Virus record (IMG/VR): IMGVR_UViG_3300026549_000001
Span: 32,001 to 96,000 of that record
DNA from: a virus
Lineage: Duplodnaviria; Heunggongvirae; Uroviricota; Caudoviricetes
Length of the DNA: 64,000 nt
Strand: one strand, 5' to 3'
Below, piece after piece: positions 3,691-60,607 of the stretch. The notes under the pieces were generated by a model. That model ran no database searches. It had not been told where the DNA came from and saw only the letters and a program-made list of their open reading frames with translations. The first letter of the stretch is position 1. Every line of letters begins with the position of its first letter. Made by a program: the position numbers and the translations under genes.

Positions 3691-6600
3691 TTAGAACTTA
3701 AAAGGAGTTTTTGGTTTTTCAGTAGAACTTGTGTCTGTTGATTCTGCTTTCGGGAAGTTCAACTTAAATCCCTTTGGTTGTGGGTTTTCTGATACTTCAG
3801 GAGCAATAGTAGGACTTACTGCTGATGGTTCAACAGGTTTTGCTTCAACAGGTTTTGTATCTACATTAAATTGGATTTTAGGTCTGTCAGAAATATCCCT
3901 ATTAGGTCTAACAGGAGGTGTTATTCTCTCTGATACTTTTGGCGGTTCAGGAGTTTCTTCCTTCTTATTATTAAATAAGTCTTCTTCATCACTTAAAGCG
4001 TTTTTGATGAAATCAGGGGTAGTATCTTCTTGTTCTTCATTTTCATCAGTATTAGAAACACCACCATCGGGGTCATCAAGTTTGTATTGTCTAACCCATC
4101 CTTCATTTTTGATTTCCTCTTTACGCCGTTTTTTTAATTCAAGGAAAACGGGATTATCATAAGTCATCTTCAGACTTTCATCAAATTCCCAATCCACATT
4201 ATGTTTACCATAGTTCGCTACTCTATGATAGGAATAAAAATATTCCTCTCTTATTTTCATAAGAGGTCAGACTATATCATTCAGATAAAATTATATTTCC
4301 CGCACCATACACAACACATTCTTTATTATAAATAATACTCGGTGTAGGAATAATGTCAATAAGATTATTTTTATTAAAATCATCTTTTGGGTATCTATCT
4401 TCGTTCATTATTAAATAGGTTAAAAGTGATAGTTGTTCTTCAAAATTTTCAAAACCGTATATATGAATAAGTCGTATGCCCTTTTCTCTGCATAGTAAAC
4501 TTTTCTTCAAATGATAATCCTTCGGTACTTTACTATGCCAATATGTTCCATTGTACTCTATTGCAAGTTTTCTATGTGGTAAATATATATCTAATTCATA
4601 AGGAGATATTATTGTTCTTATATGCCTTATTATTTCATACGGATATACCCCCATTAAGCATTTAACAATTTCTTGTTCTGGTAAAGTATCAGTAGTTGCT
4701 ATATGAGAATTATAATACTCTTTTATAATAGGTATATATTCATTTGGAATGAAAGCAGAATTACAATAGTATATACGAGGTATATTTAATTGTTTATTTT
4801 GTTTCCAACCTTCACCATATAAATTTACTAATGTTTTCATTCGAGTACATTTGTTTTCTTGCTCAAATAAAGTTCTCTTTTCGGTTTTTGTATTTTGAAT
4901 TTGTTCCTGTATAGTAGTTAGATAAAATGGATTATCTACTCCATATTTAGCCATTAACGCTTTTTTAGTTTGGTTAGCTCTATATGAAGAGTTTCCCCTT
5001 CCACAAGCACAAGTTATTTGATATTTTTCTTGTAAGGTGTGTTTTGTTTTATCTCGAACATCTTTTCTATTTTGATTATATAATGCACTACAAGAATTAG
5101 AACAAAATATTCTATATCCTTTAGTTAATCCTAAAAAAGTTGTTTCTTTACTACATACAGGGCAAATACCCTCTTGTGATGTTTTATAAAATAAGTCATA
5201 ATATTGTTTAGGAGATATATTGTGTATTTTTATGTGTACTCCTAAAACATTAACATTTTCATTACATAATTGACATTGCATAATTTTAACTTTACCCACT
5301 CTTTCCCTTTTGCTTAAAAGGTACTCCCATACAGGGATAGTCGTTGAGCCTTTCTCTTGATTATCTATCAATTATTAAATAGACTAATTTTAGAGTTTTG
5401 GTTGCTTATTGTCCAATCTATATATTTTTTAAAACCCTCACACTTATCATTTCTAATTATGTTGTGGTATATATAGCTTTAAGGATGTTCAAGCAATTAA
5501 ATGGGTTTATAGAGGACAATGGTTTTCATCCTCTGGTTGTGTATAATATGTTTGTGTTTCTATGATTTCATTACCACTTTGTAAGAAACCGCGCCCCTTT
5601 ATCTCCGGTTTAGCCAGATTACTAATATCTTTTTCAAACATTAAAGTCGAGGCTCCCGTATCGAATGCGCCAAGTATAATGCTTAACTGTATATTGTTCT
5701 TTAGGTCTGTACTTATTGTGTTACCCGATGCTCTCTGACACTGGTAAGGAAAAATACCAAGACTATATCTTTAATCTATATACTGTTACCATATATAGAT
5801 TACCCACCACTTCGCATTTCTGCTACTCTACTCACTTCTTCACTTATATCTTTCTTATAAGTTATGTTTTCGATAGTCTTTGAACCTTCCTCTATTCGAG
5901 GCTTGGATGCGGATTGATATATTATTAAACGACCGTAGGAATAGATTACTTTTACTATTTTTTTATTTCACCATAGCCGATTTCTTTTTGTTTTTTCTAC
6001 TTTCGTAACATTCACACTTGACTTTATTTCATGTCTATGTTGTAGTCAAAAGAACCTTAATATCTTCCCGCAATTCAATGGGATAACTACACATAATTGC
6101 TTATATATAGTGCCTGTTTTTTTTTATTTCTTAATAGTCATGTCTAATTTCAAAATTAGAAGCTATCCAATTATGAATATCTTCGAGTGTCCATAAAACT
6201 ACATAATTTAATTTATTTTGTTTAGCACACTTTCTTTTTTCTACATCTTTTTTCGTCCATATATCTATAGCCATTTGCATTTTATTAGATGTTTTGGCTT
6301 TCTCTTTCCATGCGTTTAATACACTTACATCAGCTTGAGAGGTTTCATCAAACCAATGATTGTTGTGGGTAAAATAACCATTAATTTCTACAAAAGTATC
6401 AGTATTGGGTAAATAAAAATCACAATGATATGGATAACGCAAATCTTTATTATATTCATACTCAAAAGGAATATTATGTTCTAATAGTGCGGTTTTTAGT
6501 ATATTTTCCCAAGATGACCTTGTTCCATTATATTTTTCAAGTACATTACCACACATAGGATTATTATTTCCGTAGCGTTTTAATAAAGTTTGTTGTACCT

Positions 6601-9600
6601 TATGTTGTGTTTCCATTGTGCAAAACGAATTTGGATAGCCATATCGTTCAATCATTGTCGCTCGTTTTTTAGTCATCGCTTGTTTATTATGACTTTTTTG
6701 TAATGATTCCTCTGTTAATAATGGCGTTGTTTTCCCATACCGAGCGATATTTGTAGCCTCTATTTTATTTCTTGTGTTAGGATGTTTTTGCCCACAAGAG
6801 ACACTACACACTTTTCGATAACCAAGAGCAAGATTGATGAAATTAGTAGGATTACCACATACTTGACAAATATCTTCGTTATCTTTTTTTAAATATAAAT
6901 TATAATAGTTTTGTGTTGTCATACCATGTGCCAATGCAATATGACAACCAAGCCCTCTATAATTTGGACTTGTATGTTCACAAATTAGACATTTTACCAT
7001 TAAATATTTTCCTTTTAGGTTAAGCAAGAGCAAGGTGGGTAGCCGCGGCTCTTCCGAGGCGAGCTATACTCCCAAGTGCCTGTTTTACTGTGTCTACCGA
7101 TTTATAATCATCTGATGTCATACATAAATGGACTATATCTTTATCCTATATACTATTACCATATATAAAATACCTACCACTTCCCTTTAATAGACTTATA
7201 TATAACTATTCTCATTATATCGCTAACCGTTAAGGCGGTACTCTACTCATTTATTCATATAAGTTTTTCTCTTATATTATACTTTCGATAGTCTCTGAAC
7301 CGTTCTCTATTCGAGAGTTGGTTGCTGATTACTAATTATTAAACGACCGTAGGAGTAGATTGCTTTTACTACCTTTTATTTCACCATAGCCGATTTCTTT
7401 TATTTTTTCTGCTTTCGCAACATTCACGACTGTCTGTATTTCAAAACTTCGTTGTAGTTAAAAGAACATTATAGCTTTTCAGCAATTAAATAGGTTAATT
7501 TTTGCACATATTGGTTAAGTTATCAAAATAAACATTAACCTTTATATACCGAGCCTATAACACCATTAAGCTCATTGAGTTCATCACATAACAGTATCAT
7601 GCACTTTGGGGTATATTCCCCTCTTGTTTTCCTAATTGAGTTAGCATCCACATAAGAATTGTAACCCTTGACTTCGGGTAATTGTGGATGCTTCCACTTG
7701 TTCTTCTGTAAACCATTATATATATCTTCAATAGTAAGAATAATGGGTTGTCTACCTTCAGGATATATCATTAGGTTCTTTGCATAATTTCTATCTGTTT
7801 CGTCCAAGTCAACAGTAAGCTCAAACATTTCATCGAATTGACATTTTTTACCGAAAATTTCAAAATAATCTACTTCGACTCCTTTGCACTTATATATATT
7901 ATTGACTTGTTGCTTCTCCATAAATTTGAAGCGGCTCATCATTAGAGTTTGAAAGTTTGCCGCAAGTGCCGCCGCTGTTGCTACATCAAGCGCAACTCCT
8001 TTGACTCCTTTAACCCCCCGCAACAAATTGAATTCCACTCTTTTACAATCCCATTTACTTATTATATTTCTATAATAAACTGACTATATCTTGTATAATA
8101 AATGACTTATTTGTGAATTTTAAACTGCTTATACCAATGTTTATCATGAAATTTACTAATACAATAGTTTAGGTGTGGTTGTACTTCTTCGACTGTCCAC
8201 ATTATAACATTATTATCAGCCATACACTTGCGTTTATCTTTATCCTTTAGTTGTCTATCTTCATCCAAGAATTGAAGTCCTTTTATCTCAATCAGCTCAT
8301 CATTGATTAAGAAATCTGGAAAATAATAATGTTTTTTATTATTACTATCGTAGTATTCAAGTCTAATTGGTAATCTATTGATAGGTATGTTATTATCTTT
8401 ACAATAAATATATACAGCTAATTCCCAAGAGCTATCAAAGTTTAAATTATCATACTTGTAATGGCTTAAAGTTCTCTTTTGAATTTCTCTGTTTTGTTGA
8501 GGATTTTTAACCCCATATCTTTCCATGTTGGTATGTTTAATTTTTTCTTTGCCATACTCTGATGCAAAAACATTTTCAGCCCCAAACTTTTCTACAAGTG
8601 TTTTAATGGCTTTTGCTTTAATCTCTCCCGCTTGTAATGTGCATATATTACCGTATAGTTCTAAATTTGTTTGTTTTGTTTTTTCTATAACATCTATGCG
8701 TTGATGGGCATTCTCTACACCATACCGCTCAATATTTGCTTGTTTAATTTTTTCTTGTATTTCTTTTGATTTAAACGGATTGTTCACCCCATAATTCTCG
8801 ATAAATGTTTGTTTAACTTTATCTTGCGTTTCCCTCGTACAAAATGAAGTTTTATATCCGTGTACTCTTAAGTGTGTGGCTAATCGTTTTTCTTGAATCG
8901 TTTTATCTGCATACTGACATTTTTTACTGCATCGGGAATTATATCCTTGATTAAGACTAATAAACTTGGTAGGGTTTCCGCAACATTTACAGATTCCCTC
9001 TCCTTCCCGCTTTAGATAAGTGTCATAATATGTTACATTTGTTAAGTTATGATGTTTTATATGCCATGATAACTGTTTTGCTGTTTCAAACGATTCACCA
9101 CATATTTTACAAGTTATCATTTATTATACTCCTTCCACTTCCATCCGTAACTCATCCTCGGATGTACTCCCTTAATGGGATAGTCGATACACTTCCTCAA
9201 TTTTTTGAGTTTAGCACGGTATTCGGTTTATCTCACCATTTTTCAGGTTTACCGTCTCTTATTCAGATTATTCGTCTATGGTTTATATCCCTATATCTTG
9301 TTGTAACATTTCATAGAGAAGTCTTATTTTTCTGATACCGTTAGCAATTTAGAATAAAATCTAAATCACACCCATGAGTAATATGGTTCAAAAGGAATGC
9401 GCGAATTGGTTTACGCCCGCTAACTGAAAGTGGTCGGGGAATCTTGATACATGACCTACAATGGACTGTTCAAGAACTGACTTTCCTGAATTGTGTAGAA
9501 TAGCTCCAAAAGGAGATTGAAACTTTGGAGAGGTGTCCAATGTAAAACCATAATATTGTCCAATTTGATTTAATGGTTTTACAGCAAAGTTTACTTGTTT

Positions 9601-9603
9601 CAA
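3691..9603 (-). CDS. FtsK-like ATPase 1, C-terminal gene: 38-aa intein C-fragment plus C-extein. Exons 9603-9413, 8051-7569, 7122-7023, 5740-5528, 4194-3691
   Basis: TTG start with AAGGAGG RBS. Joined exons are in frame and read ...ILHN/SGKSVLEQS...AGV^DCKRVEF...ILLCDELNEL^MTSD...GSIARLGRAAATHLALA^CQRASG...GRGFLQSG...QPED^DWEF, which are FtsK/SpoIIIE motifs. Confidence 0.88.
4195..5527 (-). mobile_element. Group I intron 4 (carries an endonuclease ORF)
   Basis: P1 AGAGGAU/GUCCUCU with U-G at the 5' splice site; CAACGACUAUC and GAUAUAGUC P7 strands; P9 hairpins; terminal G; removal restores the frame. Confidence 0.85.
4277..5281 (-). CDS. Intron-encoded putative homing endonuclease (C2H2/CxxC Zn motifs, KYGVxN repeats, PD-(D/E)XK/Vsr-like C-terminus)
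   Basis: CQLC..H..H, CPVC, YELDIYLP..LAIEYNGTYWH; stop codon overlaps the P7 3' strand; likely start ATG 5281. Confidence 0.8.
   Translation of the reverse strand: MQCQLCNENVNVLGVHIKIHNISPKQYYDLFYKTSQEGICPVCSKETTFLGLTKGYRIFCSNSCSALYNQNRKDVRDKTKHTLQEKYQITCACGRGNSSYRANQTKKALMAKYGVDNPFYLTTIQEQIQNTKTEKRTLFEQENKCTRMKTLVNLYGEGWKQNKQLNIPRIYYCNSAFIPNEYIPIIKEYYNSHIATTDTLPEQEIVKCLMGVYPYEIIRHIRTIISPYELDIYLPHRKLAIEYNGTYWHSKVPKDYHLKKSLLCREKGIRLIHIYGFENFEEQLSLLTYLIMNEDRYPKDDFNKNNLIDIIPTPSIIYNKECVVYGAGNIILSE
5741..7022 (-). mobile_element. Group I intron 3 (endonuclease ORF in the P1 loop)
   Basis: Exon ends UUGCU and pairs with GGCA downstream of the ORF; core GAAUUGCGGGAA, AAGACUAUCG and AAGAUAUAGUC; ends ...CCAG before TGT CAG AGA. 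Confidence 0.85.
6131..7000 (-). CDS. Intron-encoded putative homing endonuclease
   Basis: CLIC..H...H, CQVC, RYG repeats, YPYHCDFYLP..FVEING..TH. Confidence 0.8.
   Translation of the reverse strand: MVKCLICEHTSPNYRGLGCHIALAHGMTTQNYYNLYLKKDNEDICQVCGNPTNFINLALGYRKVCSVSCGQKHPNTRNKIEATNIARYGKTTPLLTEESLQKSHNKQAMTKKRATMIERYGYPNSFCTMETQHKVQQTLLKRYGNNNPMCGNVLEKYNGTRSSWENILKTALLEHNIPFEYEYNKDLRYPYHCDFYLPNTDTFVEINGYFTHNNHWFDETSQADVSVLNAWKEKAKTSNKMQMAIDIWTKKDVEKRKCAKQNKLNYVVLWTLEDIHNWIASNFEIRHDY
7123..7568 (-). mobile_element. Group I intron 2 (no ORF, 446 nt)
   Basis: P1 GAGCU/GGCUC; AAUUGCUGAAA, GAGACUAUCG and AAGAUAUAGUC core; terminal G; the CT^T join gives DELNELMTS. Confidence 0.85.
8052..9412 (-). 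mobile_element. Group I intron 1 (carries an endonuclease ORF)
   Basis: P1 GCGU/GCGC; GUAUCGACUAUC and AAGAUAUAGUC; P9 hairpin with GAAA loop; the GT^G join gives AGVDCKRVEF. Confidence 0.85.
8107..9120 (-). CDS. Intron-encoded putative homing endonuclease
   Basis: CKIC..H..H, CKCC, repeated YGVxN units, FDSSWE..YFPDF..IEIKG nuclease motif. Confidence 0.8.
   Translation of the reverse strand: MITCKICGESFETAKQLSWHIKHHNLTNVTYYDTYLKREGEGICKCCGNPTKFISLNQGYNSRCSKKCQYADKTIQEKRLATHLRVHGYKTSFCTRETQDKVKQTFIENYGVNNPFKSKEIQEKIKQANIERYGVENAHQRIDVIEKTKQTNLELYGNICTLQAGEIKAKAIKTLVEKFGAENVFASEYGKEKIKHTNMERYGVKNPQQNREIQKRTLSHYKYDNLNFDSSWELAVYIYCKDNNIPINRLPIRLEYYDSNNKKHYYFPDFLINDELIEIKGLQFLDEDRQLKDKDKRKCMADNNVIMWTVEEVQPHLNYCISKFHDKHWYKQFKIHK
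9490..9603 (-). other. Split intein 1, C-fragment (38 aa)
   Basis: ..GQYYGFTLD..ILHN followed by Ser(+1) SGKS; VMA-type blocks F/G. Confidence 0.88.
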
Positions 9604-9687
9604 ATAAATTTCCTCCTTAATATATATTTCCCAAGATTGGGTTATATATAGCACTTACAAAATTACTTATTATTTGTATAATAAAAA

Positions 9688-9715
9688 ACAAAGAGAATAT
9701 ATTTATCTCTTTGTT
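9688..9715. terminator. Hairpin, probable terminator after the Hint-core gene
   Basis: acaaagaga...tctctttgt inverted repeat. Confidence 0.45.
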
Positions 9716-9740
9716 AGTAATAATGTAAGGTTATATTTAC

Positions 9741-10232
9741 TTATACTTTTTCCATAGCCATTTTACTTTGGAAGGATTCATCCATTTGTAGAAAAACATC
9801 AACAGGCATATCTATATGTTCACCCGTTTCTTTATCTACCATAGATAATATATGTTCTGCATTTACATAAAAGGTTTCTCCGTCAATAGTCAATTCATAC
9901 ATATCTGATAGTCCTGTATGTAATTTAGTAATTTGACGGGGAGTATTATCTTCTCCAACCACATAATCTCCAAGCTCAATATTTTTTGCTAATTTATATC
10001 GAGCATCAACAGGAAGGGTTGAATTATCTTCTTCTATTCGGAAAGACCTTTTTATTCTTCTACCATTAATATTATCTATAAGATAGTATTTAAAGTAGTC
10101 GGTCATTTCTAATAATTCTGAAATTGAAAAGCAATATTTCTTTGGGAATAGAAAGCCTTTAAATACAAATAATTGTTTATTGTCATTTCCAATAATAAAA
10201 GAGTTATCATCTAAATATACTCTGTATCTCAT
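9741..10232 (-). CDS. Free-standing Hint core, middle piece of split intein 1
   Basis: KLAKNIELGDYVVGEDNTPRQITKLHTGLSDMYEL..FYVNAEHILS is a VMA-type N2/B block; no block A and no terminal HN. Confidence 0.82.
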   Translation of the reverse strand: MRYRVYLDDNSFIIGNDNKQLFVFKGFLFPKKYCFSISELLEMTDYFKYYLIDNINGRRIKRSFRIEEDNSTLPVDARYKLAKNIELGDYVVGEDNTPRQITKLHTGLSDMYELTIDGETFYVNAEHILSMVDKETGEHIDMPVDVFLQMDESFQSKMAMEKV

Positions 10233-10266
10233 TTTTCCTTTCGCTTTGTACTTCCTTCCTTTTTTA

Positions 10267-10683
10267 TTAGGTTAATTCCCAAGCCAAGTCATAATATCTT
10301 TTATATCCACTATAATTAGGAATATCTTGGCTATGTCGCATTATTTTATTACTGTGCTTCTTGTGTGATTTTTTCCTTATATTCAGTCTCGCTACTCTTT
10401 CAGGAGTATCTACCACACTAAAAGTTACAGGTCTTTTTGTAACTGTTGGTGGGTAATATCCTCCCTCAACAATTACTTTACCATAGAGTTCTATTTTGGG
10501 AACATTTCGTTCAGGGAGAAAACAGATTTCATATCCTGTATTATATTTTTTAGTTTTTAAATAATACCCTAATCCCTGTCCGTATTCATAATTGATTGCT
10601 TTTTCAAATCGCCTTTGTTCTTTTAGGCGTGTTTGTCTAATACGGTTATTACGCTTATGTTTTTCAAATAACTTTCTGTTCAT
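10267..10683 (-). CDS. Basic hypothetical protein
   Basis: ORF with RBS, K/R-rich. Confidence 0.6.
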   Translation of the reverse strand: MNRKLFEKHKRNNRIRQTRLKEQRRFEKAINYEYGQGLGYYLKTKKYNTGYEICFLPERNVPKIELYGKVIVEGGYYPPTVTKRPVTFSVVDTPERVARLNIRKKSHKKHSNKIMRHSQDIPNYSGYKRYYDLAWELT

Positions 10684-10713
10684 ATCATAATCGTTCCCTT
10701 TCGTCTATATAAA

Positions 10714-10740
10714 AAGGCTAACTTGTTTAAGGTTAGCCTT
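10714..10740 (-). terminator. Rho-independent terminator
   Basis: aaggctaac...gttagcctt hairpin with a T-run on the minus strand. Confidence 0.6.
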
Positions 10741-10762
10741 ATTGTTATTATATTAGGTTTAA

Positions 10763-11383
10763 TTATGCCGCCTTTGTGTAGCGAATAATCTTGTCTGCCA
10801 ATCTTCTATATACCCGAAGATTGATAAGCAGATTTACAGGCTGTTCAGCAAGTCTCGTAGCACACATAAGTTTTACTTCGTCATTGTAAACTACTCTATC
10901 ATCACAGCCCTCAACCCTCCACAGGTCTTTCTTTATTCTATCAAAACCTATGGAATTTTCAATGTATTCCAACATGGCTTTTTTGCTTACCAAGATAAGT
11001 TCCATCTCTTCTACCTGTTGTGAAGCGTTTGAAATATTTTCACCATCTGGTACGGAGTGTTTGTGGATTACACCAATGAGCAAGTGCGTGGTTTCGAGAG
11101 AAGCGTTTACGCCCCAACCATCATACCTAATGCCGTTTTTATTAAGAACGGAAATCTCCCAATTATTTGTGCGGGGAAGATATTTCAATGATGCTTTGGA
11201 AGAAAGCATCTTAAAATCTACATTCATTCCGTCAATTATGGCATCAATTCCACGGACTTGCCTTTTCTTATCATGAACAAGTTCCACCGAATTGAATTTC
11301 TCTTTGAGAATTCGGGTTACAAGTCCGTTAAGGTGTTGTTCGATCTGGCTATCCTCTTTACGAGTGGTGTTGTAGTTAAGCAT
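10763..11383 (-). CDS. Putative PD-(D/E)XK-fold nuclease
   Basis: Q-x-x-G-I-D..VDFK..WEIS..GW pattern; AAAGGAGG RBS before ATG 11383. Confidence 0.55.
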   Translation of the reverse strand: MLNYNTTRKEDSQIEQHLNGLVTRILKEKFNSVELVHDKKRQVRGIDAIIDGMNVDFKMLSSKASLKYLPRTNNWEISVLNKNGIRYDGWGVNASLETTHLLIGVIHKHSVPDGENISNASQQVEEMELILVSKKAMLEYIENSIGFDRIKKDLWRVEGCDDRVVYNDEVKLMCATRLAEQPVNLLINLRVYRRLADKIIRYTKAA

Positions 11384-11412
11384 TAGCTTGTCCTCCTTTG
11401 TTTGATGTTTAT

Positions 11413-11441
11413 ATTGTATCATATATGGAAGAATTTGTCAA
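11413..11441 (-). promoter_or_regulatory. Sigma-A type promoter
   Basis: TTGACA-17 bp-TACAAT with TG extension. Confidence 0.7.
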
Positions 11442-11621
11442 TAGATTATACTAATTTATTTTAATATATTTTTCTTAATAAACCCTTGTAGTGAAATTAC
11501 CAACCCTTTTTCTTTTAACGCGACTTAAGGTATTCTCTTTTGTTGTGTTTCTTTTCATGTGTGTAAAAAAAAATAGTAATATTAAACTCTTTCCATTACA
11601 AGGGCTTATCAAGATATACAG

Positions 11622-12674
11622 TTACAGTAACCAATCTTTTCTTATTGGTAAATTATCATTAAACCAATTGTCTATATCTTCTTTATTCCATAATACAACA
11701 TAATTTATATTGTTTCGTTCAGCACATAATCTTTTTTGCACATCCTCAACTGTCCATATAGAAATAGCTCTTTGATAGTATGAAGATGATTGTTTAGATT
11801 TCCATTCACCTAATTTATCTAAATCTACTTTGTTATTACTATCAAACCAATGTCCTCCGTGAGAAGGATGATTATTTATTTCAATAAATAAATCTAAATG
11901 TGGTAAATAAAAATCACAAAAATAGGGATAACGACTATCTTTATATTCTTCTATATAAGAAGATATATTATAGGCTTCTAATAATAGAAGAAAATATTTT
12001 TCCATCTTGCTTCTTTTGTCATTCTTGCGTAATGTATTTGTTCTCTTACTCCAACATTCATCAGAATATACTTTTTCTAACTGTAAAGTATTTGACACCC
12101 CATATCTCTCTAAATTGGTAGTCATCATTTTTTGTTTGATTTCATCAGAATACATAGGATGGCTTACACCGTATTTTTGTAATAATGATTGTCTTATTTT
12201 TTCTTTTATACTTTCAGATGCAAATGGGTTTTCTGCATTATACCGAGAAATATTAGTCTGTTTAATTCTTTCTTGAATATCTTTATTTGCAAAAACATTT
12301 GATACTCCATATTTAGATAAATTAGTTTGAATTATCTTTTGTTTTACTATAGGAGATTTCAATACATTAGATACACCATATTTTTCTTTAACCGTAGAAG
12401 TTCTCTTTGCTTTGGTTTCTTCTGAACGCAGTTGTTTTTGTAGATTTCCATTAGTGTCAGAATTTGCACATTTAGAGGAACAATATTTAAGATAGCCCTT
12501 CACATAACCATTAAACTTTGTATCTTTTCCACACAAAGCACATTTTCCTTCATCTGCACTTTTTAGGTAACTATCATAATACTCTTTCAAAGTAATACTA
12601 TGCGATAGGCGTATATGACTACTTATCCCACATATTTGGATTTCTTTTCCACATATTTCACATTGTACTATCAT
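11622..12674 (-). CDS. Free-standing putative homing endonuclease; overlaps the end of the FtsK-1 N-gene
   Basis: Same family as the 6131-7000 ORF (YPYFCDFYLP..FIEIN..H, KYGVSN repeats). Confidence 0.8.
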   Translation of the reverse strand: MIVQCEICGKEIQICGISSHIRLSHSITLKEYYDSYLKSADEGKCALCGKDTKFNGYVKGYLKYCSSKCANSDTNGNLQKQLRSEETKAKRTSTVKEKYGVSNVLKSPIVKQKIIQTNLSKYGVSNVFANKDIQERIKQTNISRYNAENPFASESIKEKIRQSLLQKYGVSHPMYSDEIKQKMMTTNLERYGVSNTLQLEKVYSDECWSKRTNTLRKNDKRSKMEKYFLLLLEAYNISSYIEEYKDSRYPYFCDFYLPHLDLFIEINNHPSHGGHWFDSNNKVDLDKLGEWKSKQSSSYYQRAISIWTVEDVQKRLCAERNNINYVVLWNKEDIDNWFNDNLPIRKDWLL

Positions 12675-13431
12675 AAGGTCTTTCTAATGTATTAAACATT
12701 CTAATAGGAGTTTGTTCAGAAAAACACCCTGTACCCCCCGCTATGAGCATTGATGTGGAGGGAATAGTAGGATATAAAGAGGGGTTTTTATTTTGGTCGT
12801 TAAGATACCAAGCAATAGGAGATACTTGTTGAGTATTAGTGTTAATACATAAACCTACAGGTATAATGTTCCAAAAGAGGTCATCTTCTTGTTTGAATTT
12901 AGCCATTTTAGGAATAGGTTGCCTTTTCTTACATTCTACTTGAATAACACCTCTGTCAATAAATGTTTTTATATAGAAATAAGAAAAGTGTATGGACTTG
13001 TCACTCATTTCAGTAACAAATTCTTTTTTGTCAACTTCTTTTCCTGAACGGTCATATTCTATGTATATATATTTTCTGTCATAAAATATTACATCTGTGC
13101 CTAATCTTTTTTGTGCGATTTCGAACACCCAATCATCGAATGGAGCTTTTCTCAAGAATAATCCCTTAACAATAAAAGCTAATAAAAGCAATCCAAGAGC
13201 TAAAACACCACAATATAAAATAATGTGTCTGAAAATAGGATGTCCTGTAATATTAGCAGTTTGTTTGACAAAAGTAGAAGCAAATAAAAGAGCGGCTATT
13301 ATAAGAGCAATAATAGACAAGGTGCGTAGGGTTTTGAATACCCTATACATAAACTGATTTCTTGGTTGTATACCTTTGAGAACAACCTCTTCCTGTTTGT
13401 CATTTGCTATATTATCTTTAAAGAGTGCCAT
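12658..13431 (-). CDS. FtsK-like ATPase 1, N-terminal gene: 2 TM helices, ends in half of Walker A plus a 22-aa intein N-fragment (12661-12726)
   Basis: ..SMLIAGGTG/CFSEQTPIRMFNTLERPYDSTM*; CFxxxTPIRM is intein block A. Confidence 0.85.
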   Translation of the reverse strand: MALFKDNIANDKQEEVVLKGIQPRNQFMYRVFKTLRTLSIIALIIAALLFASTFVKQTANITGHPIFRHIILYCGVLALGLLLLAFIVKGLFLRKAPFDDWVFEIAQKRLGTDVIFYDRKYIYIEYDRSGKEVDKKEFVTEMSDKSIHFSYFYIKTFIDRGVIQVECKKRQPIPKMAKFKQEDDLFWNIIPVGLCINTNTQQVSPIAWYLNDQNKNPSLYPTIPSTSMLIAGGTGCFSEQTPIRMFNTLERPYDSTM

Positions 13432-13444
13432 TATTTCTACCTCC

Positions 13445-14515
13445 CTACAATACTAATCTTCCCGCACCATATACTGTATGTCTGTTATCATTATATATAA
13501 TACAAGGAGATGGTGGATTGTTTAAATATAAATTGTTTTTATTAAAATCTTCTTGTGGAAATAAATCTGTTCCATTTATAAGAAGATTGACAAGTCTTAT
13601 TTGTTCTTCTAAATCTTCAAACTCGTAGATGTGTATTAATCTTATTCCTTTTGTTTTACATAATATACTTTTAGTTAAATGATAATCTTTCGGAGTGCCA
13701 AATTCTACACTATGCCAATGAGTACCATTAAATTCTATAGCCAATGATATTTCGGGTAAGTAAATATCTAATTCATACGGAGAAATAATTTTTCTTGTAT
13801 GAGTTATAATTATTCCATCATAAGATAAATCATTTATGATAGATTGTTCAAGATGTGTGCGTGAACTGTAATATCCTTCAATAATCGAAATATCAGCAAT
13901 TCTTATATACCCTTTATTCTTATACCGCACAATGGGAAGAATTTGAGATTGTCGCCATCCTGTATTGAAGGGTAATTCCGATATAGGTATATATCCTAAT
14001 TCTCTCATATATAGAATATCTTGTTGTTTACTCTGTCTACATTTATTTATATATTCTTCTGTTTGAGCATAATTTTCTGTATGATACTTTTTTCTGCAAA
14101 TAGATACATACTGTTGTTTAAATTCTTCACTTTGAGTAAACCAATCACATTTATATCTTTTTTGGTTAGTGGATATAACCTTTTGCCTTATACTATTATA
14201 ATCAAATTTCTGTGCCTTTATTTGTTTAATGGTTTCCAATTTACTTATATTAGTTACGCCATATTTCTCTAATACAGTTTGTTTTCTCTTTTGTGTAGTT
14301 TCTGTACTCGAAGTCGCACATTTGTTTGAACAATATTTTCTATAACCTTTTGTAAATCCTAAAAAGGAAGTGGGATGTCCGCAAATAGGACAAACCCCAC
14401 TATTAGGATATATTAAATTATAATACTGCTGTATAGTATATTGATGTTTATGTTTTATATGATATAATAACCCTTTTTGTGTTTTTATATCTTCCCCACA
14501 AATTATACACTTCAT
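13445..14515 (-). CDS. Free-standing putative homing endonuclease
   Basis: Paralog of 4277-5281 (ISPYELDIYLP..AIEFNG.HWH; ends YGAG). Confidence 0.8.
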   Translation of the reverse strand: MKCIICGEDIKTQKGLLYHIKHKHQYTIQQYYNLIYPNSGVCPICGHPTSFLGFTKGYRKYCSNKCATSSTETTQKRKQTVLEKYGVTNISKLETIKQIKAQKFDYNSIRQKVISTNQKRYKCDWFTQSEEFKQQYVSICRKKYHTENYAQTEEYINKCRQSKQQDILYMRELGYIPISELPFNTGWRQSQILPIVRYKNKGYIRIADISIIEGYYSSRTHLEQSIINDLSYDGIIITHTRKIISPYELDIYLPEISLAIEFNGTHWHSVEFGTPKDYHLTKSILCKTKGIRLIHIYEFEDLEEQIRLVNLLINGTDLFPQEDFNKNNLYLNNPPSPCIIYNDNRHTVYGAGRLVL

Positions 14516-15567: not shown

Positions 15568-17745
15568 TTAATCTCTTTTCTTTTGGAATGGATTGCTTGT
15601 TAATAGCTTCACATCGTAATTAGAAATTATATGAATAAATCCAGTTCTGTTCTGACTGTCTATCATAAAACAATTACCTGTGGCTAATTTTGTGGTACTT
15701 GCAATAACACTATCTGTATCAATTGCGGTTGATGCATCTATTTTAGATGTGTCAAATTTATCTAAAAATAGTTTAGCTTCTTCCATAGAACTTCTAAACA
15801 TTACTTTGGTTGACATAAACTGTGCAATGTTATCAGGAAAGTGTGAGATGCCTTGTGAAGCCAATAAAGTAGCTGTATTAAGCGAACGCCCTATAACAAG
15901 GAATTTATCTATAAGGTCAGACATTTTTTTATTACCATACAATAAGTGAGCTTCATCACAAACTAATGTGGTAGGTATTTTATTATCTGATGATAGGAGT
16001 TCATATAATTTAGTTGTAATAATATACAAAATAGCAGAAGTGAATCTTTCATTAGCATCATAATCTTCCACTTTCTTTGTATAGTCAGGCAAACTCATTC
16101 CGTGTAAAGTAATAATTAAAGATGTTCCTCTATTTAAATATAATGGAGTAACATTTTCCTCTCTGGTGAATAATAATTTACCGTACTTATTATCTTCATA
16201 CATTTTTAGCATATTGCCTATTTTTTGACAAGATTCATTATCTCTGCTAAAAAGATAGTCAGCGACATCTTGCATATCTTTATAAACACCATCTCGGTTA
16301 TATGCAATAATAAAGTCTTGAATAATAGGTGTAATTGCTATAATATCCTGTTTATCTAATTTACCACATATTATCTCTATTATAGATAAAAGAGTAGAAC
16401 TATCAAATTTATCTAAAAATGTAAAAGGATTTAATGCTCCTGGGCGAATATTATTTATATCTATAAACTCAACAGAACTACTTACATTTAGTAATTTATT
16501 GAAGTCATTCTTCGGGTCTATACAAATAACCCTTTGCCCCATTCCTAAAGCATTTGCACATACATTTAATAGAAAAAATGTATTATGGGTAACTACTGTA
16601 TCTCCTGCAATAAATTGATGGTCTGGAGCATCTACCATAAAACAGGTACAATCTTCTTCTTTATTTAATGGTTGAATATCTATGATTTGTAAAGTGTTAT
16701 AATTGCGATAATGTTTTTTAACAATAGATGATGCTTCTAATGCTCTTTCTTTCTTTGCACTATATGAGAAAAAATTAGGCTTTCTTTCTGCAAAACAACC
16801 AACAAATATATTGTAACTTGGATTACCTTTTCGTAAGTCAGGATTTCTTTCTGAACAATACATATAACCCATACTACGGACAACCTCTATAATATCATCA
16901 ATAAGTTGTCTTGAACCACTACAATATGAAATATTATATCGTGGTGGAAGACCTATTGTACCATCTGTATCAAATAGCCCCTGTATAAGCTCCCACCTAT
17001 CCTCCTCGGTAGTATATTTATAACAATCGGGAATATACTTATTATAAGAATAACAATTTGTCAATAAATTTTGTATTTCTTCATTTTCTGTTAAATGCTT
17101 TGCGTGTACTCTGTTATTACTATTATCAAAATAAAAGCTATAAGTATATCCTACTTTCTCTTTTTTACAAGTAATTGTAGTATTTAATTGCTTACTTAAT
17201 AGTAATGCAATTTTATTTGGAACTTCTTCATTTCCAGAAGAAACCTGTAAGTCCCCATAACTGCGACAACCATTACCTAAAAATGCTCCAATTATATATG
17301 GTGCTACAGTATACGACTGCTTTGGGAATTGAAGCGCACCATTGTTTTGTAAATAAAAGTTATGTCTATTCGTGCTATCTGTGACACCCTTTTTTATTAT
17401 ATCTTCTACACTCATTATCTCCCACTTATATTTTTTGTGAGAAATTGTACCGACTAAAAACCTATGGTCTTTAGAACAAACTATTTTTCTTCGGTCGGCT
17501 AATGTCACTTGATACATTTCTTTTTTCCCTTGTGGAAAAACACCTAATACTTTGGTTGGTTGCCCATTTTGTCCAAAAATATAATCTTGTTCTTTTATAT
17601 CTGCTATTGTTTTCATCCCCTGCGGGGTTATTATCCGCTCACTATTAGCGATCGGCTTTCCGCTGCCTGGGGAACCTATCACAACTGAACCAGAAGCTCT
17701 ATTAGTCATTTGAGCAGTAACGGGCGACCATCTAACTGTACTCAT
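15568..17745 (-). CDS. VirB4/TcpF-like conjugation ATPase (ATPase domain only) containing an intein
   Basis: GSPGSGK/TFF Walker A, IDPKND, LVCDEAH Walker B, GRS..ASQ. Confidence 0.85.
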   Translation of the reverse strand: MSTVRWSPVTAQMTNRASGSVVIGSPGSGKPIANSERIITPQGMKTIADIKEQDYIFGQNGQPTKVLGVFPQGKKEMYQVTLADRRKIVCSKDHRFLVGTISHKKYKWEIMSVEDIIKKGVTDSTNRHNFYLQNNGALQFPKQSYTVAPYIIGAFLGNGCRSYGDLQVSSGNEEVPNKIALLLSKQLNTTITCKKEKVGYTYSFYFDNSNNRVHAKHLTENEEIQNLLTNCYSYNKYIPDCYKYTTEEDRWELIQGLFDTDGTIGLPPRYNISYCSGSRQLIDDIIEVVRSMGYMYCSERNPDLRKGNPSYNIFVGCFAERKPNFFSYSAKKERALEASSIVKKHYRNYNTLQIIDIQPLNKEEDCTCFMVDAPDHQFIAGDTVVTHNTFFLLNVCANALGMGQRVICIDPKNDFNKLLNVSSSVEFIDINNIRPGALNPFTFLDKFDSSTLLSIIEIICGKLDKQDIIAITPIIQDFIIAYNRDGVYKDMQDVADYLFSRDNESCQKIGNMLKMYEDNKYGKLLFTREENVTPLYLNRGTSLIITLHGMSLPDYTKKVEDYDANERFTSAILYIITTKLYELLSSDNKIPTTLVCDEAHLLYGNKKMSDLIDKFLVIGRSLNTATLLASQGISHFPDNIAQFMSTKVMFRSSMEEAKLFLDKFDTSKIDASTAIDTDSVIASTTKLATGNCFMIDSQNRTGFIHIISNYDVKLLTSNPFQKKRD
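16582..17655 (-). mobile_element. Cis intein (358 aa, class 3-like, LAGLIDADG) in the VirB4-like Walker A
   Basis: Starts with Pro; CSKDH block B; GAFLGNG and GLFDTDG; CTC block F; VTHN/T. Confidence 0.9.
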
Positions 17746-31786: not shown

Positions 31787-33013
31787 TCAAATTATAAGGT
31801 TTACCCGAACAGGGTTTAGTACACACCCAATATCCAATGGTTTTTCAACATCTTGGAATACTTTTCTCATTATTTGATAAGCCCCATTTACATCTGCGTT
31901 TATTAATGTACCATCATTACTTCTAAACAATCCTCTGTTTACTCGTCTTTTTGGGTTATAGTATTCTTTTAAAGGGGGTTCATTATCTAAAAAACTTGTA
32001 CCCGAAGTGTAACTTTCTTCGGATAAAATGAAATTAATACCTTCTTCCTGACATTTATATTTTAATTTTTGTATAAATGAATAGTATGGTATTTGAGCAA
32101 AATTCTTTAGGCGTACCCCCTGTTTTTGATATTTATTGTGTCCAACCACAATAGAGGTAATACCCAAAGAAAGACAATGGTTTACAATATATTTAGAAAC
32201 TCGGTGCAAAAAACAATCTATTTTATCTGCCCTTTTATTTTGCAAACCATATAATAGATGACTATACCCAATATCATTTCCATTTCTATCTAATTCAGCT
32301 TTTACTGAATTAATGCGATAATTGAAGTAGTTATTACAAGATTTTAGACCTTTACCATTTATAATAATTGGTTTATTAAACATATTATCAACAAAGGTTA
32401 CAAAGTTATCTAATCCCAAGTCTATACTACCTATTGCCCCGCATTCATTAATTTGTTCTGAAATATCAATAGTATATATTAATTCCACAATGATTCTTTG
32501 GTTATGGGGTACAAATCTACATTGGTTAAAGTTTACAAGTCTACTATCTTTAATAAATTGTGGTTGAAGTGTAAATCCACACAAAGATTTGCTAAAATGA
32601 ATTAGCCCGTCTTGTTTTAGTCTACAATTTGATTTTGTCAATGAGAATTCAGTTACACCATCTTTTTTCAAATATTTAGGCAGTTGTGGTCTGCCTTTAT
32701 ATTTTGATGGATTATTTTTCCAATCCTTTATAGTAACAAAAAATGATTTCCAATTATCTTCCAAACGGCGAAGAATTTGCTGACTGCCGCTTGATAATTC
32801 TAATTCCCAATAGTCAGGGTATTCTAAATTACTCTTAACTAATTTATCAACCTCGCCATATCTCAACCACTTACCATTTTCAAGAAATTCCTTACGAACA
32901 AGATAATTGCCGTGGTTATATATGTTCTTGGCAATGTGACATTTTTTAAATAAAAGATTGTACCACTTGGATTGTCTATCTATTATATGTTTTTCTGTTC
33001 TTTGCACTAACAC
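31787..33013 (-). mobile_element. tnpB: TnpB (IS200/IS605-superfamily RNA-guided nuclease) with no transposase
   Basis: IDLGLDN, EESYTS and NADVNGA RuvC motifs. Confidence 0.88.
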
Positions 33014-57868: not shown

Positions 57869-60607
57869 TTACAAATAGTCATCAATGTTCTTGACTTCTA
57901 CGGGTTTTTCCCCCATCGTTATTAAATAGTCTATATTTTGACTTTGTTGATTTATCGCAAAAGGCTCTCCATTTATTAATGCTTGATTTTCTGTTACTGT
58001 TGGAATATCAATTACTAACGGTCTTTCTGGTGGAGTAGTATCTTCCCCTGAAACACTATTATTGATTTTCAACTTTGGTTTTTTATTCTTATAGATATAT
58101 GGAATAATCCTATACATCTCCTGATTGCCCTTTTTAGATAATAATGGATATTTAGAAATGATTAACGCTGTAGGGGATTTTCCTCTATATGGTTTACGCA
58201 AATCCATAATAGAATATCCTTTTCCCTCATATTTCTGAACACCCGCCAATAAATCAGCAGTAGTCTGTGTAGCTCCTGCGTGTATTATAAATGAATTTAT
58301 TGTGCCTAATATAGCATTAACAAAATACTCTCCTGCGTTCATAGCTATTTGGTTTACATCTAAAATAGAGAATACAGTTTGACATCCTCCAGACCTTCCT
58401 TTTTCCAACAGGTCTTTAATTAGAGTAGAACTCTCCATTGTTCCAAACTCATCAATACATAATAATAATCTTGGGTTATATCTCTTTCGAGTACCCCTAT
58501 CCATTATGTCTTGGAATATAAAAGAACTCATACTATTTGCTAACGCTTTATTAGCACTTATAAATGAAAAACAGATAACATATTGTTTCTCTGTTTCAAA
58601 TGAAAACTTATTACCACCATCCACTAACATTTCTTTAGCTTTGGAAGTTAATAATATTTCAAGCTGTTTTGTTAGAGTAGCAAAACCATCTCTTTCATTA
58701 CTTTCGGGTTTATAAGAATACATAAACTGTTGTAACCCTACTAAATAATTAATGGTTTCATTCTTTTGCTCCCTATATTTATCATACGCTCTAATAACAT
58801 TTTGAATGGCTAATTGAGTGGAGGTCTTATAATGCTCATCCGCACCGTCTGAACTCCATCGTCTTGTATTCATTAGAGCTTCTACCTTACCTGTTTCATT
58901 TAGATTAACTAACGGGTCATAAGTAAAGGTACACCGTCTTGCACTAAACTCATAATAAGGTATATCTCTTTCAGAACAATACTTTTGTAAATCATCAAGT
59001 ATCTCTGTTTCACCTTTATAGTCAACAAATACAACGGGCTTTCCATTATTTATTGCTTGTTGCATTATAGACCGCATTGTAGTTGTGTTGTGAGTAACTA
59101 CAAAATTTTCTCCTTGATACAAATGTTCTTCATCAGCTATATAGATACAAGTACATTCCTCTTGATAGTCAAGTTTTCTAATGGCTCTTATGCCAATAAC
59201 CTCACCAAATGATTTTACTCTGCTCCTATTAACGCTATTTGCCATTTTTGCTCGTTCTAATTTATATGAAAGAGTAAAGAACTTTTGTTTATCAATATTA
59301 TTACATTTTATATGTAAATGATAACAAATATGCTTATGTCGGGTATCTTCGGTGATTGATGAAGAAATACCTAATGAGTATAATATTTCTTGTATATCCT
59401 TGATAAGTTGTTTTGAAGTCGAACTATAAGAAACATTATAGCGAGTCGAAATGCCGATTGTACCATCCGTGTCAAATAACCCCTGTAAAAGTTCCCATCT
59501 TTGTTCTATACTACCAAATTTATATTCAAATGGTATATACTTATTATACGAATATGTATTTGTTAAAAGATGTATCAATTCTTCATTTGTCGTTAAGTGT
59601 TTGGCGTGAACTTTATTACCTTCCTCATAACAAAAAGAATAGGTGTAGTTGGATTTTGGAGGTCGTATATAAACAGGGGATTTGCATACTGTATTTAACA
59701 ATCTAACTATTTTATTTGGCACTTCTTCATTTCCAGAAGAAAGCTGTAATTCCCCATAACTGCGACACCCATTGCCTAAAAATGCTCCAATTATATATGG
59801 TGGAATATCATATTTTATAGGAGTAGTGTATACTGCTTGGTTTGCGGGAATAACATTATTCAAAGATGTACCCCTTGTTTTATCTATAAGCGTATGCAAT
59901 TCTACAGTTTTCCAATATTTACTACCATTGCCCCATCTACTTTTATATGTAATTAAATGGTTGCCACTTGCTTTAAAGGTTCTACCATCTGCAAGTTCTA
60001 TTTCATATATATCTAACTTTCCTTGTGGAAATACACCAAGTATTTCGGTTGGGATTCCTTCTCTATTATATACAAAATCTCCAATCTGCAATTCACCCAT
60101 TTGTTTATACAAAAAATTTCCATTATCATATACGGGTATTTTTGCACTATTCGGCTCGGCTTTCCCTGAACCTGATGCGCCTGTAAGTAATGTACCCGCA
60201 GAAAGAATGGTGTCATTTAAGCAAACAGGTCTATTATTATGTTTTAACTCCTTATGATTAACAGGTAGAATCTTACCAATAATAACCTCATCTTTTTTTG
60301 GTTTTCTATTGTTGAATAGTCTGGAAATGCTAAAAATTGTACCACTATAATCTAAATTAGCCCCTTCAAGAATATACCTATATCTATATCTAACATAAAT
60401 GAGTAAAGCTAATCCTAAAACAATATATATTATTGTGGGTAAACCAAATAGAAAAGCAATACCACTAAAAAATAATTGATTTAGATATGCTACAGGGGCA
60501 GTTTGTTTTTTCGCTAATACTACATTAATAACCGTAATAATAAATATTATACCTAAACCAATAAGGGAGTTTAACCACACTCCATTTAATATATTAATCA
60601 TAGTCAA
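57869..60607 (-). CDS. VirD4/TraD-like coupling ATPase containing an intein
   Basis: N-terminal TMs, GASGSGK/TTT, VDYKG, LCIDEFG, KGRSGG. Confidence 0.85.
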   Translation of the reverse strand: MTMINILNGVWLNSLIGLGIIFIITVINVVLAKKQTAPVAYLNQLFFSGIAFLFGLPTIIYIVLGLALLIYVRYRYRYILEGANLDYSGTIFSISRLFNNRKPKKDEVIIGKILPVNHKELKHNNRPVCLNDTILSAGTLLTGASGSGKAEPNSAKIPVYDNGNFLYKQMGELQIGDFVYNREGIPTEILGVFPQGKLDIYEIELADGRTFKASGNHLITYKSRWGNGSKYWKTVELHTLIDKTRGTSLNNVIPANQAVYTTPIKYDIPPYIIGAFLGNGCRSYGELQLSSGNEEVPNKIVRLLNTVCKSPVYIRPPKSNYTYSFCYEEGNKVHAKHLTTNEELIHLLTNTYSYNKYIPFEYKFGSIEQRWELLQGLFDTDGTIGISTRYNVSYSSTSKQLIKDIQEILYSLGISSSITEDTRHKHICYHLHIKCNNIDKQKFFTLSYKLERAKMANSVNRSRVKSFGEVIGIRAIRKLDYQEECTCIYIADEEHLYQGENFVVTHNTTTMRSIMQQAINNGKPVVFVDYKGETEILDDLQKYCSERDIPYYEFSARRCTFTYDPLVNLNETGKVEALMNTRRWSSDGADEHYKTSTQLAIQNVIRAYDKYREQKNETINYLVGLQQFMYSYKPESNERDGFATLTKQLEILLTSKAKEMLVDGGNKFSFETEKQYVICFSFISANKALANSMSSFIFQDIMDRGTRKRYNPRLLLCIDEFGTMESSTLIKDLLEKGRSGGCQTVFSILDVNQIAMNAGEYFVNAILGTINSFIIHAGATQTTADLLAGVQKYEGKGYSIMDLRKPYRGKSPTALIISKYPLLSKKGNQEMYRIIPYIYKNKKPKLKINNSVSGEDTTPPERPLVIDIPTVTENQALINGEPFAINQQSQNIDYLITMGEKPVEVKNIDDYL
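59087..60160 (-). mobile_element. Cis intein (358 aa, class 3-like, LAGLIDADG) in the VirD4-like Walker A
   Basis: Starts with Ala; ASGNH; GAFLGNG and GLFDTDG; CTC; VTHN/T. Confidence 0.9.

Follow-up and report, generated by a model that had tools for sequence, protein, structure and literature searches.

A predicted three-piece intein and four group I introns in an FtsK/TcpA-like ATPase gene of a large extrachromosomal element

The 64,000-nucleotide stretch analysed here (the window) covers positions 32,001 to 96,000 of the IMG/VR record IMGVR_UViG_3300026549_000001 (G000) and contains an FtsK/TcpA-like ATPase gene that is broken up by what is best read as a three-piece, trans-splicing class 1 intein and by four insertions that are best read as group I introns, splicing being predicted in both cases. 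Unless another record is named, coordinates are those of the window, and all features of this locus lie on its minus strand. The N-extein, delimited by alignment to homologues (12727..13431, 235 aa), carries two predicted membrane segments, a linker and the first half of the Walker A motif, and is followed by the N-terminal intein piece, IntN (12658..12726), a 22-aa segment that begins with Cys1 and is recognised from its open reading frame (ORF) and its relatives. The last codons of IntN overlap the start of a free-standing gene for a putative homing endonuclease (11622..12674) that sits at the first split and, by domain matches, combines a DUF7487 domain, a zinc finger and a PD-(D/E)xK/Vsr-like end. 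Two unrelated ORFs intervene before the next piece, one of 219 aa (10763..11422), preceded by a strong sigma-70-like promoter (11441-11413) and followed by a terminator-like hairpin (10740-10714), and one of 138 aa (10267..10683), the homologues of which lie near but outside the same gap in relatives. Between the endonuclease gene and that promoter, at 11612-11470, a stem of about 20 bp closes a 100-nt AT-rich loop. The middle piece, IntM, is a free-standing 163-aa ORF (10232-9741): its residues 73-163 (9741..10016) correspond to the middle of the intein, which runs from strand 3 up to the site of the endonuclease split, and include the block B His (Hom_end_hint, E 4e-7), and its residues 1-72 (10017..10232) match, by hhalign and by fold, a degenerate duplicated half-Hint domain from which the block B His is missing. 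A terminator-like hairpin with a T run (9683..9715; 10-bp stem, loop of 9; unlisted by the scanner) lies between the IntM gene and that of IntC (9490..9603), which encodes 38 aa from a TTG start behind AAGGAGG and ends in His-Asn before Ser+1.

The C-extein follows IntC in five exons, assigned from the reading frame and homologue alignment. Exon 1 (9413..9489, 77 nt) holds the second half of Walker A, exon 2 (7569..8051, 483 nt) Walker B, and exon 4 (5528..5740, 213 nt) the Q-R motif and the arginine-finger region; exon 3 (7023..7122) is 100 nt long, and exon 5 (3691..4194, 504 nt) encodes the end of the ATPase domain and an acidic Pro-rich tail. When the five segments are joined together with IntC (9603-9413, 8051-7569, 7122-7023, 5740-5528, 4194-3691), they form a single open frame from the TTG at 9603; the C-extein amounts to 77+483+100+213+504 = 1377 nt, and removal of the 38-residue IntC and addition of the N-extein give a product of 693 aa. 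Six intein-free homologues align to this product with zero indels at the intein joint and at all four intron joints, and the N-extein shares 50-65% identity with the N-terminal region of intact homologues (50-57% for these six). The intein lies inside Walker A (the P-loop), intron 1 immediately ahead of the D-x-K motif, intron 2 four residues past the Walker B DE, intron 3 immediately ahead of C-Q-R, and intron 4 at the end of the ATPase domain. In database searches the closest intact homologue, P0003, with which the spliced product is co-linear, served as proxy for the 693-aa protein; it scores above the FtsK_SpoIIIE (PF01580) cut-off (E 1e-18), and its best structure matches are TcpA-type coupling proteins (E 2e-10). 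N-terminal membrane segments, an FtsK_SpoIIIE domain, Walker A and B, Q-R and an arginine finger are shared with TcpA-type and FtsK-SpoIIIE proteins of solved structure (PDB 6o1w-6o1z, 2ius), whereas identity is about 30% over part of the domain only, and the ATPase described here has a large insertion between Walker A and Walker B. No intact copy of the gene was found in the 250,568-bp genome. Both exteins are under purifying selection, with proportions of nonsynonymous and synonymous differences (pN/pS) of 0.19/0.80 and 0.26/0.73. As the P-loop remains cut unless the exteins are ligated, selection on them implies that splicing happens.

Each of the three intein ORFs has its own start, stop and ribosome site, and in the window IntN and IntM are 2.4 kb apart and IntM and IntC 138 nt. 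The residues of class 1 chemistry are distributed over all three, with Cys1 on IntN, His127 of block B on IntM, His-Asn on IntC, and Ser+1 following, and they are invariant in all complete loci. IntN and IntC together hold about 50 intein residues without block B, so that a third gene, free of extein, is required; because these two pieces alone lack block B, the locus falls outside the definition of a two-piece split intein. The domain match of IntM indicates a Hint fold and the gapless alignment indicates precise, frame-restoring removal, the folds themselves being models.

Four further complete genomes (G001-G004) repeat this order of the three pieces and have unrelated genes inside both gaps, which measure 4.5, 10.6, 8.7 and 4.5 kb between IntN and IntM and 8.3, 17.3, 5.2 and about 28 kb between IntM and IntC; an assembly artefact was rejected on the grounds that the layout recurs in independent genomes. 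At 14 distinct loci the N-extein gene ends with an IntN of 15-16 residues, often with the next ribosome site directly after the stop, and in an N-extein tree, which has three long intact branches of uncertain position, these loci and those of G001-G004 form one clade with the locus of the window (support 95/90). The endonuclease gene at the first split is also present in L001, L002, L032 and L046 and absent from L003 and L026. Word-based searches with IntM gave only a near-identical copy; a profile search retrieved free-standing proteins of 158-220 aa in 16 further 50%-identity clusters, none with a His-Asn end. Outgroups display three other states of the gene: intein-free (P0002-P0005); two-piece with a long IntN (P0007/L021, P0008, P0031), where L021 is split at the usual site and has an endonuclease gene in the gap; and two-piece with a short IntN (P0022/L046, P0029), where IntM and IntC are fused and L046 and P0029 have an overlapping endonuclease gene. 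By this comparison the three-piece form appears as a combination of both breaks that are found singly in outgroups. pN is below pS in both exteins, in IntC and in both halves of IntM, the closest pair having pN/pS of 0.09/0.48 in the IntM extension and 0.02/0.36 in its core. In P0001, P0007/L021 (10001-11488) and P0008 a second, contiguous intein that starts with Pro lies two residues upstream of the split intein, within the same Walker A motif; in P0001 it is combined with a short IntN.

The N-terminal extension of IntM, about 70 residues, is present in every partner of a short IntN and in no long-IntN form. Aligned to the distal half of IntM, residues 1-72 reach an hhalign score of 30.1 (E 1.4e-5), compared with 14.7 for the best shuffle. 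The model of the extension (mean predicted local distance difference test score, pLDDT, 91) superposes on residues 46-148 of the Prp8 intein with Z 10.0 and a root-mean-square deviation of 2.2 Å over 71 aligned residues. Its fold matches the C-terminal two thirds of solved inteins, the top 24 matches all being Hint domains, and the Atlas agrees; this result comes from a 22-row model, a four-row model having been uninformative. The extension was not found on any contiguous intein; the partial matches were tandem inteins. A model of the three chains together scores 0.88, compared with 0.24 for the best control, with at least 83% of contacts common between runs and partner pLDDT of at least 61; the mark applied was reached by 58 of 80 solved pairs and 2 of 110 mismatched pairs, and the pass may reflect likeness to known folds, because split inteins are among the solved structures. 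In the model the IntN chain contacts both the true core and the half-Hint extension, and the conserved tail of IntN (D/N-T-L-V/I) resembles the strand that the half-domain is missing. We infer, as the least certain step of our interpretation, that the extension may be a dead half-Hint, derived from a tandem duplication or a tandem intein, which now grips the short IntN.

The four insertions in the C-extein gene were delimited by their pairings. Intron 1 (8052..9412) is IA2-like, with P3.1/P3.2 and P7.1/P7.2, is also recognised from homologues, and has an endonuclease ORF (9120-8107) in L8. Intron 2 (7123..7568, 446 nt) is free of ORFs, has a 10-bp P10 and no P9, and contains sub-threshold matches to the Rfam model RF00028. 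Intron 3 (5741..7022), further recognised by its likeness to intron 2, carries an endonuclease ORF (7000-6131) in the P1 loop, and intron 4 (4195..5527), with P7.1, P7.2, P9 and P9.1, has one in L8 (5281-4277) that stops within the S element. In each case a U at -1 together with a terminal G is found in one register only, the U pairing with a G of the internal guide in P1, and the guide pairs with both flanking exons. P3, P4, P7 and P8 with the P, Q, R and S elements (the P3/P7 pseudoknot) can be drawn in all four. P10 comprises 6, 10, 3 and 3 pairs in introns 1 to 4, and P1 and P10 together give 10, 16, 7 and 10 consecutive pairs, runs equalled by 0.15% of random exon pairs for intron 1, by none of 20,000 for intron 2, by 10% for intron 3 and by 0.06% for intron 4; as one in ten random pairs equals it, the P1/P10 pairing of intron 3, taken alone, is at chance level. 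P9 is capped by a GNRA loop in introns 1 and 4 and is a plain 5-bp stem in intron 3. Comparison with homologous introns revealed compensatory changes in P3, P7.1, P7.2, P8 and P9 of the intron 1 family and in P3, P4 and P8 of the family of introns 2 and 3. Homologues of intron 1, 72-76% identical, are inserted elsewhere in this gene in relatives, the core of intron 3 is about 80% identical to that of intron 2, and part of the intron 2 core is 75% identical over 94 nt to the annotated recA intron of Staphylococcus phage 812 (EF136585). A second P4-like 5' strand in intron 1 (around 9256) was rejected, as it is not conserved among homologues. The endonuclease ORFs of introns 1, 3 and 4 belong to one family, with the same DUF7487, zinc finger and PD-(D/E)xK/Vsr-like end as the free-standing gene. 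A fifth gene of the DUF7487 type (14515-13445) lies directly upstream of the N-extein gene with no recognisable intron around it, and L001 is alike.

The layout of the locus, its frames and its conservation are confirmed at the level of sequence. Group I intron chemistry and class 1 intein chemistry are both established, and we estimate at roughly 0.8 the probability that a single FtsK/TcpA-like translocase is produced here through four group I splicings and a three-chain class 1 protein splicing. The last transcript would lose its four introns by guanosine-initiated self-splicing, as their structure suggests, and would then encode IntC with a C-extein of 458 aa. Three separately started proteins, N-extein-IntN, free IntM and IntC-C-extein, would assemble into one Hint fold, with the half-Hint at the front of IntM perhaps holding the very short IntN by its tail at a second point; class 1 splicing would join Gly235 to Ser236, restore the P-loop and release IntM. 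The product would be a membrane-anchored DNA translocase, most likely part of the conjugation machine of the element. Historically, the intein was probably broken once where endonucleases usually sit and once behind its first two strands, and homing endonucleases of a single family may have driven both the intein breaks and the intron traffic. A more ambitious reading, which we favour with less assurance, is that a clade of large extrachromosomal elements possesses a natural three-chain intein in which a separately transcribed, extein-free middle chain captures a 15-residue IntN tag by means of a duplicated dead half-Hint and so gates the assembly of a DNA pump, on top of four RNA splicings. 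In its essentials the main interpretation agrees with a preliminary description of the locus, which had proposed protein trans-splicing in three pieces, now backed by the other complete genomes, the complete set of catalytic residues and the gapless joint, and four group I introns with U-G P1, P7 and terminal G at the coordinates given here, now backed by unique registers, core pairings and compensatory changes. Its 1377-nt in-frame C-extein, 235-aa N-extein and 693-aa product (given there as approximate) all match when recomputed from the exon coordinates, and insertion mostly at conserved motifs holds for Walker A, D-x-K, the position after Walker B and C-Q-R, intron 4 being at the end of the ATPase domain. 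The Infernal search with Rfam models that it had named as a check turned out negative, no intron reaching the RF00028 gathering cut-off (50 bits): the 250-kb genome yields two matches only, of 15.6 and 11.5 bits, both within intron 2. Scans with Rfam at the level of E-values likewise gave nothing relevant. Large inserts and ORFs split the intron cores; the negative result counts against our interpretation, as do several other points. Intron 2 has no P9, leaving 8 nt between P7 and the terminal G, in contrast to its homologues, which retain a GNRA-capped P9, and this absence, as drawn from the sequence, is the main structural doubt; the P1/P10 of intron 3 is weak, with its 3-bp P10; and covariation was counted from only 4 and 7 related sequences. 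IntN compared with that of G001 shows no excess of silent changes, over 15 codons only, and the role of the ATPase is deduced from its neighbours and from the weak matches to TcpA-type coupling proteins (E 2e-10).

If the intein pieces were joined as RNA, through a very large intron or RNA trans-splicing, the protein intein would be contiguous or two-piece. Such joining might be expected in an element rich in group I introns, and the short gaps of the window (2.4 kb and 138 nt) would permit it; we consider it highly improbable, since no intron core was found near either break, the ribosome site of the next gene directly follows the IntN stop in L003, L026, L036 and L038, elsewhere gaps of up to 28 kb contain helicase and sigma genes, the pieces are separated by hairpins and a strong promoter, and every piece has a start and a stop, with the IntM extension kept as protein. 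It is also improbable, if to a lesser degree, that the pieces assemble without splicing, as a non-covalent clasp, or that the gene is a decaying relic. Non-splicing clasps of half-inteins are an existing proposal, and the IntM extension is itself a catalytically dead half-Hint, but a Hint domain left in place would obstruct the P-loop, within which the break falls, the exteins are under purifying selection, Cys1, the block B His, His-Asn and Ser+1 are invariant in all complete loci, and no intact copy was found in the genome. There is a minor chance that the intein functions but that one or more of the introns, intron 2 being the likeliest, cannot splice unaided and depend on an additional protein or RNA, or have lost activity in this strain. 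The 8 nt that separate P7 from the last G of intron 2, where homologues keep a GNRA-capped P9, and the 3-bp P10 and P9 without a GNRA loop of intron 3 would fit a need for help, and against it stand the longest P10 of the four (10 bp) and intact P3, P4, P7 and P8 in intron 2, together with exons that are all open and conserved.

The nature of the element bears on the role of the translocase. G000, a gut-type element that IMG/VR lists as a complete virus record, is a single contig of 250,568 bp with a 127-nt terminal repeat, 33% G+C and almost all of its genes on the same strand, and it encodes a DNA polymerase, gyrase, ligase, helicase and clamp loader. It also encodes VirB4-like (15568-17745), TrwB/VirD4-like (57869-60607) and VirB11-like ATPases, an NlpC/P60 hydrolase and a ParA-like protein. 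Besides the FtsK/TcpA-like ATPase, the element has a second FtsK paralogue and a coupling protein of the TrwB type. The TrwB model matches all five complete records (G000-G004), and the Pfam models Terminase_6N, Terminase_6C and Terminase_3 and the portal model match none of them, capsid models and folds not having been searched singly. No transfer RNA was found in the window, and no close relative among PLSDB plasmids, GenBank phages or GTDB genomes. Because VirB4, VirD4 and VirB11 are present and terminase and portal were not found, the framing as a phage is doubtful, and we consider it likelier, by about seven to three, that this is a large conjugative element than that it is a phage. That the element is a jumbo phage, in which the ATPase would serve packaging or segregation instead of conjugation, is possible but doubtful: the filing of G000 and its four relatives as viruses with terminal repeats, the phage-like replication genes and the closeness of the introns to phage introns are in its favour, and divergent virion genes could have been missed by the four negative models, but the coupling protein in five of five records and the VirB4, VirB11, NlpC/P60 and ParA-like proteins of G000 point to conjugation. 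The five records represent a family of virus-filed circular elements of 250-467 kb (290-467 kb for the four relatives) with a replisome and conjugation ATPases.

No natural three-piece intein was found in the open-access literature, including papers after 2023, and a 2023 preprint states that no intein split into more than two fragments had been demonstrated in nature (bioRxiv 10.1101/2023.01.30.526203). Engineered ones exist: Ssp DnaB cut at S1 and S0 splices in three pieces (PMC11766414), and like the three-piece versions of Ssp/Rma DnaB, Npu DnaE and gp41-1 (bioRxiv 10.1101/2023.01.30.526203; PMC11766414) the present intein has N-, M- and C-pieces with a free middle, its breaks falling near S1 and S0, where Ssp DnaB was cut in its three-fragment form. 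In contrast to the engineered cases it is natural and conserved in a clade, its pieces are up to 28 kb apart, and its middle piece has an extra half-Hint. With the fractured genes of Dassa et al. 2009 (PMC2677866) it shares a host gene that is split within its intein and, at the split, an endonuclease gene that stands free (here the one at 11622-12674, which overlaps the IntN stop and is lost in some relatives), as well as an endonuclease type that also occurs in group I introns, including in a P1 loop; it differs in having two breaks instead of one, the first after about 10 residues, and an FtsK/TcpA-like host. For the combination of a doubly broken intein, a free endonuclease and such a host no match was found in the open-access literature. 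Atypically split inteins (AceL-TerL with an IntN of 25 aa, GOS-TerL of 37 aa, and the consensus Cat; PMC11766414) likewise have a short IntN comprising the first strands and the N-terminal nucleophile, whereas the long partner is here cut again and begins with a duplicated half-Hint, a two-piece form with that extension occurring in the outgroups P0022 and P0029. The novelty lies in the three-piece intein and not in the number of introns, the four introns on their own being of moderate interest. In this locus a fragment of an intein persists as a gene of its own, and a conjugation-type ATPase joins the hosts of group I introns and of fractured genes. Standard class 1 chemistry, five complete genomes, at least 16 further clusters of middle pieces and both two-piece intermediates make this a testable natural case. 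Engineered versions for peptide labelling or three-input logic are weak or leaky. An intein that evolved in three parts, has a tag of 15 residues and comes with its own capture domain is a candidate tool for such uses.

The introns themselves are new members of an established type in a host gene from which none had been reported. U-G P1, P10, the P3-P8 core and the terminal G are as in other bacterial and phage group I introns (PMC3984707; EF136585; PMC7886860), as are endonuclease ORFs in L1 or L8 and the presence of several introns per gene at conserved motifs (PMC3984707; PMC7886860); the conjugation-type ATPase host, the absence of P9 from intron 2 and scores below the RF00028 cut-off in all four set them apart. 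Elsewhere in the clade the gene has four insertions in G002, three in G003 and one each in G001, L021, L027, L032 and L046, mostly at other sites, and the site of intron 4 is also occupied in G002 and G003, by a different intron family; throughout the clade this gene is a hot spot for introns. A capsid gene of crAss-like Zeta phages in five fragments has already been published (PMC7886860), and given this precedent and the three or four introns of relatives, the density that the preliminary description had called unusual for an FtsK-like gene is less so than claimed, even though the four introns in that gene stand; its comparison with the usual intron-bearing genes of phages may not apply to an element that looks conjugative and in which terminase and portal were not found. 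In G002, just past Walker A (L017, oriented 13440-13765), a 320-nt insertion in the FtsK frame does not have the usual P7 motifs. At L020 (4460-5800) and the equivalent in L017 the endonuclease ORF of the intron starts directly after P7 and ends at the 3' splice site.

Inteins are also frequent in other ATPases of the element. A contiguous LAGLIDADG intein with a Pro start and a Cys in block F (class 3-like) lies in Walker A of the VirB4-like ATPase (17745-15568, minus strand), and the TrwB/VirD4-like (60607-57869, minus strand) and VirB11-like (G000 133924-136203) ATPases have LAGLIDADG inteins too, so that every conjugation-type ATPase of the element is invaded by inteins. The second FtsK paralogue consists of four extein pieces on the minus strand (42168-40867, 31721-31251, 28908-28570 and 24006-23617) with short intein-like tags, which tile an intact homologue in L024 at 49-65% identity (tblastn); nearby are a Hint core of 116 aa that stands free (27480-27130) and what may be a degenerate one (39394-38822), and two more multi-piece inteins, of class 3 type, are probably involved. 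A repeated motif with the core CTATTTAATAAT occurs at 5387-5365, 3496-3480, 14560-14540 and 4423-4405 and at about 14 more sites of G000, almost always on the coding strand and just ahead of ribosome sites, with one copy in L6 of intron 4 upstream of the endonuclease ORF; it is likely to be an element-specific promoter.

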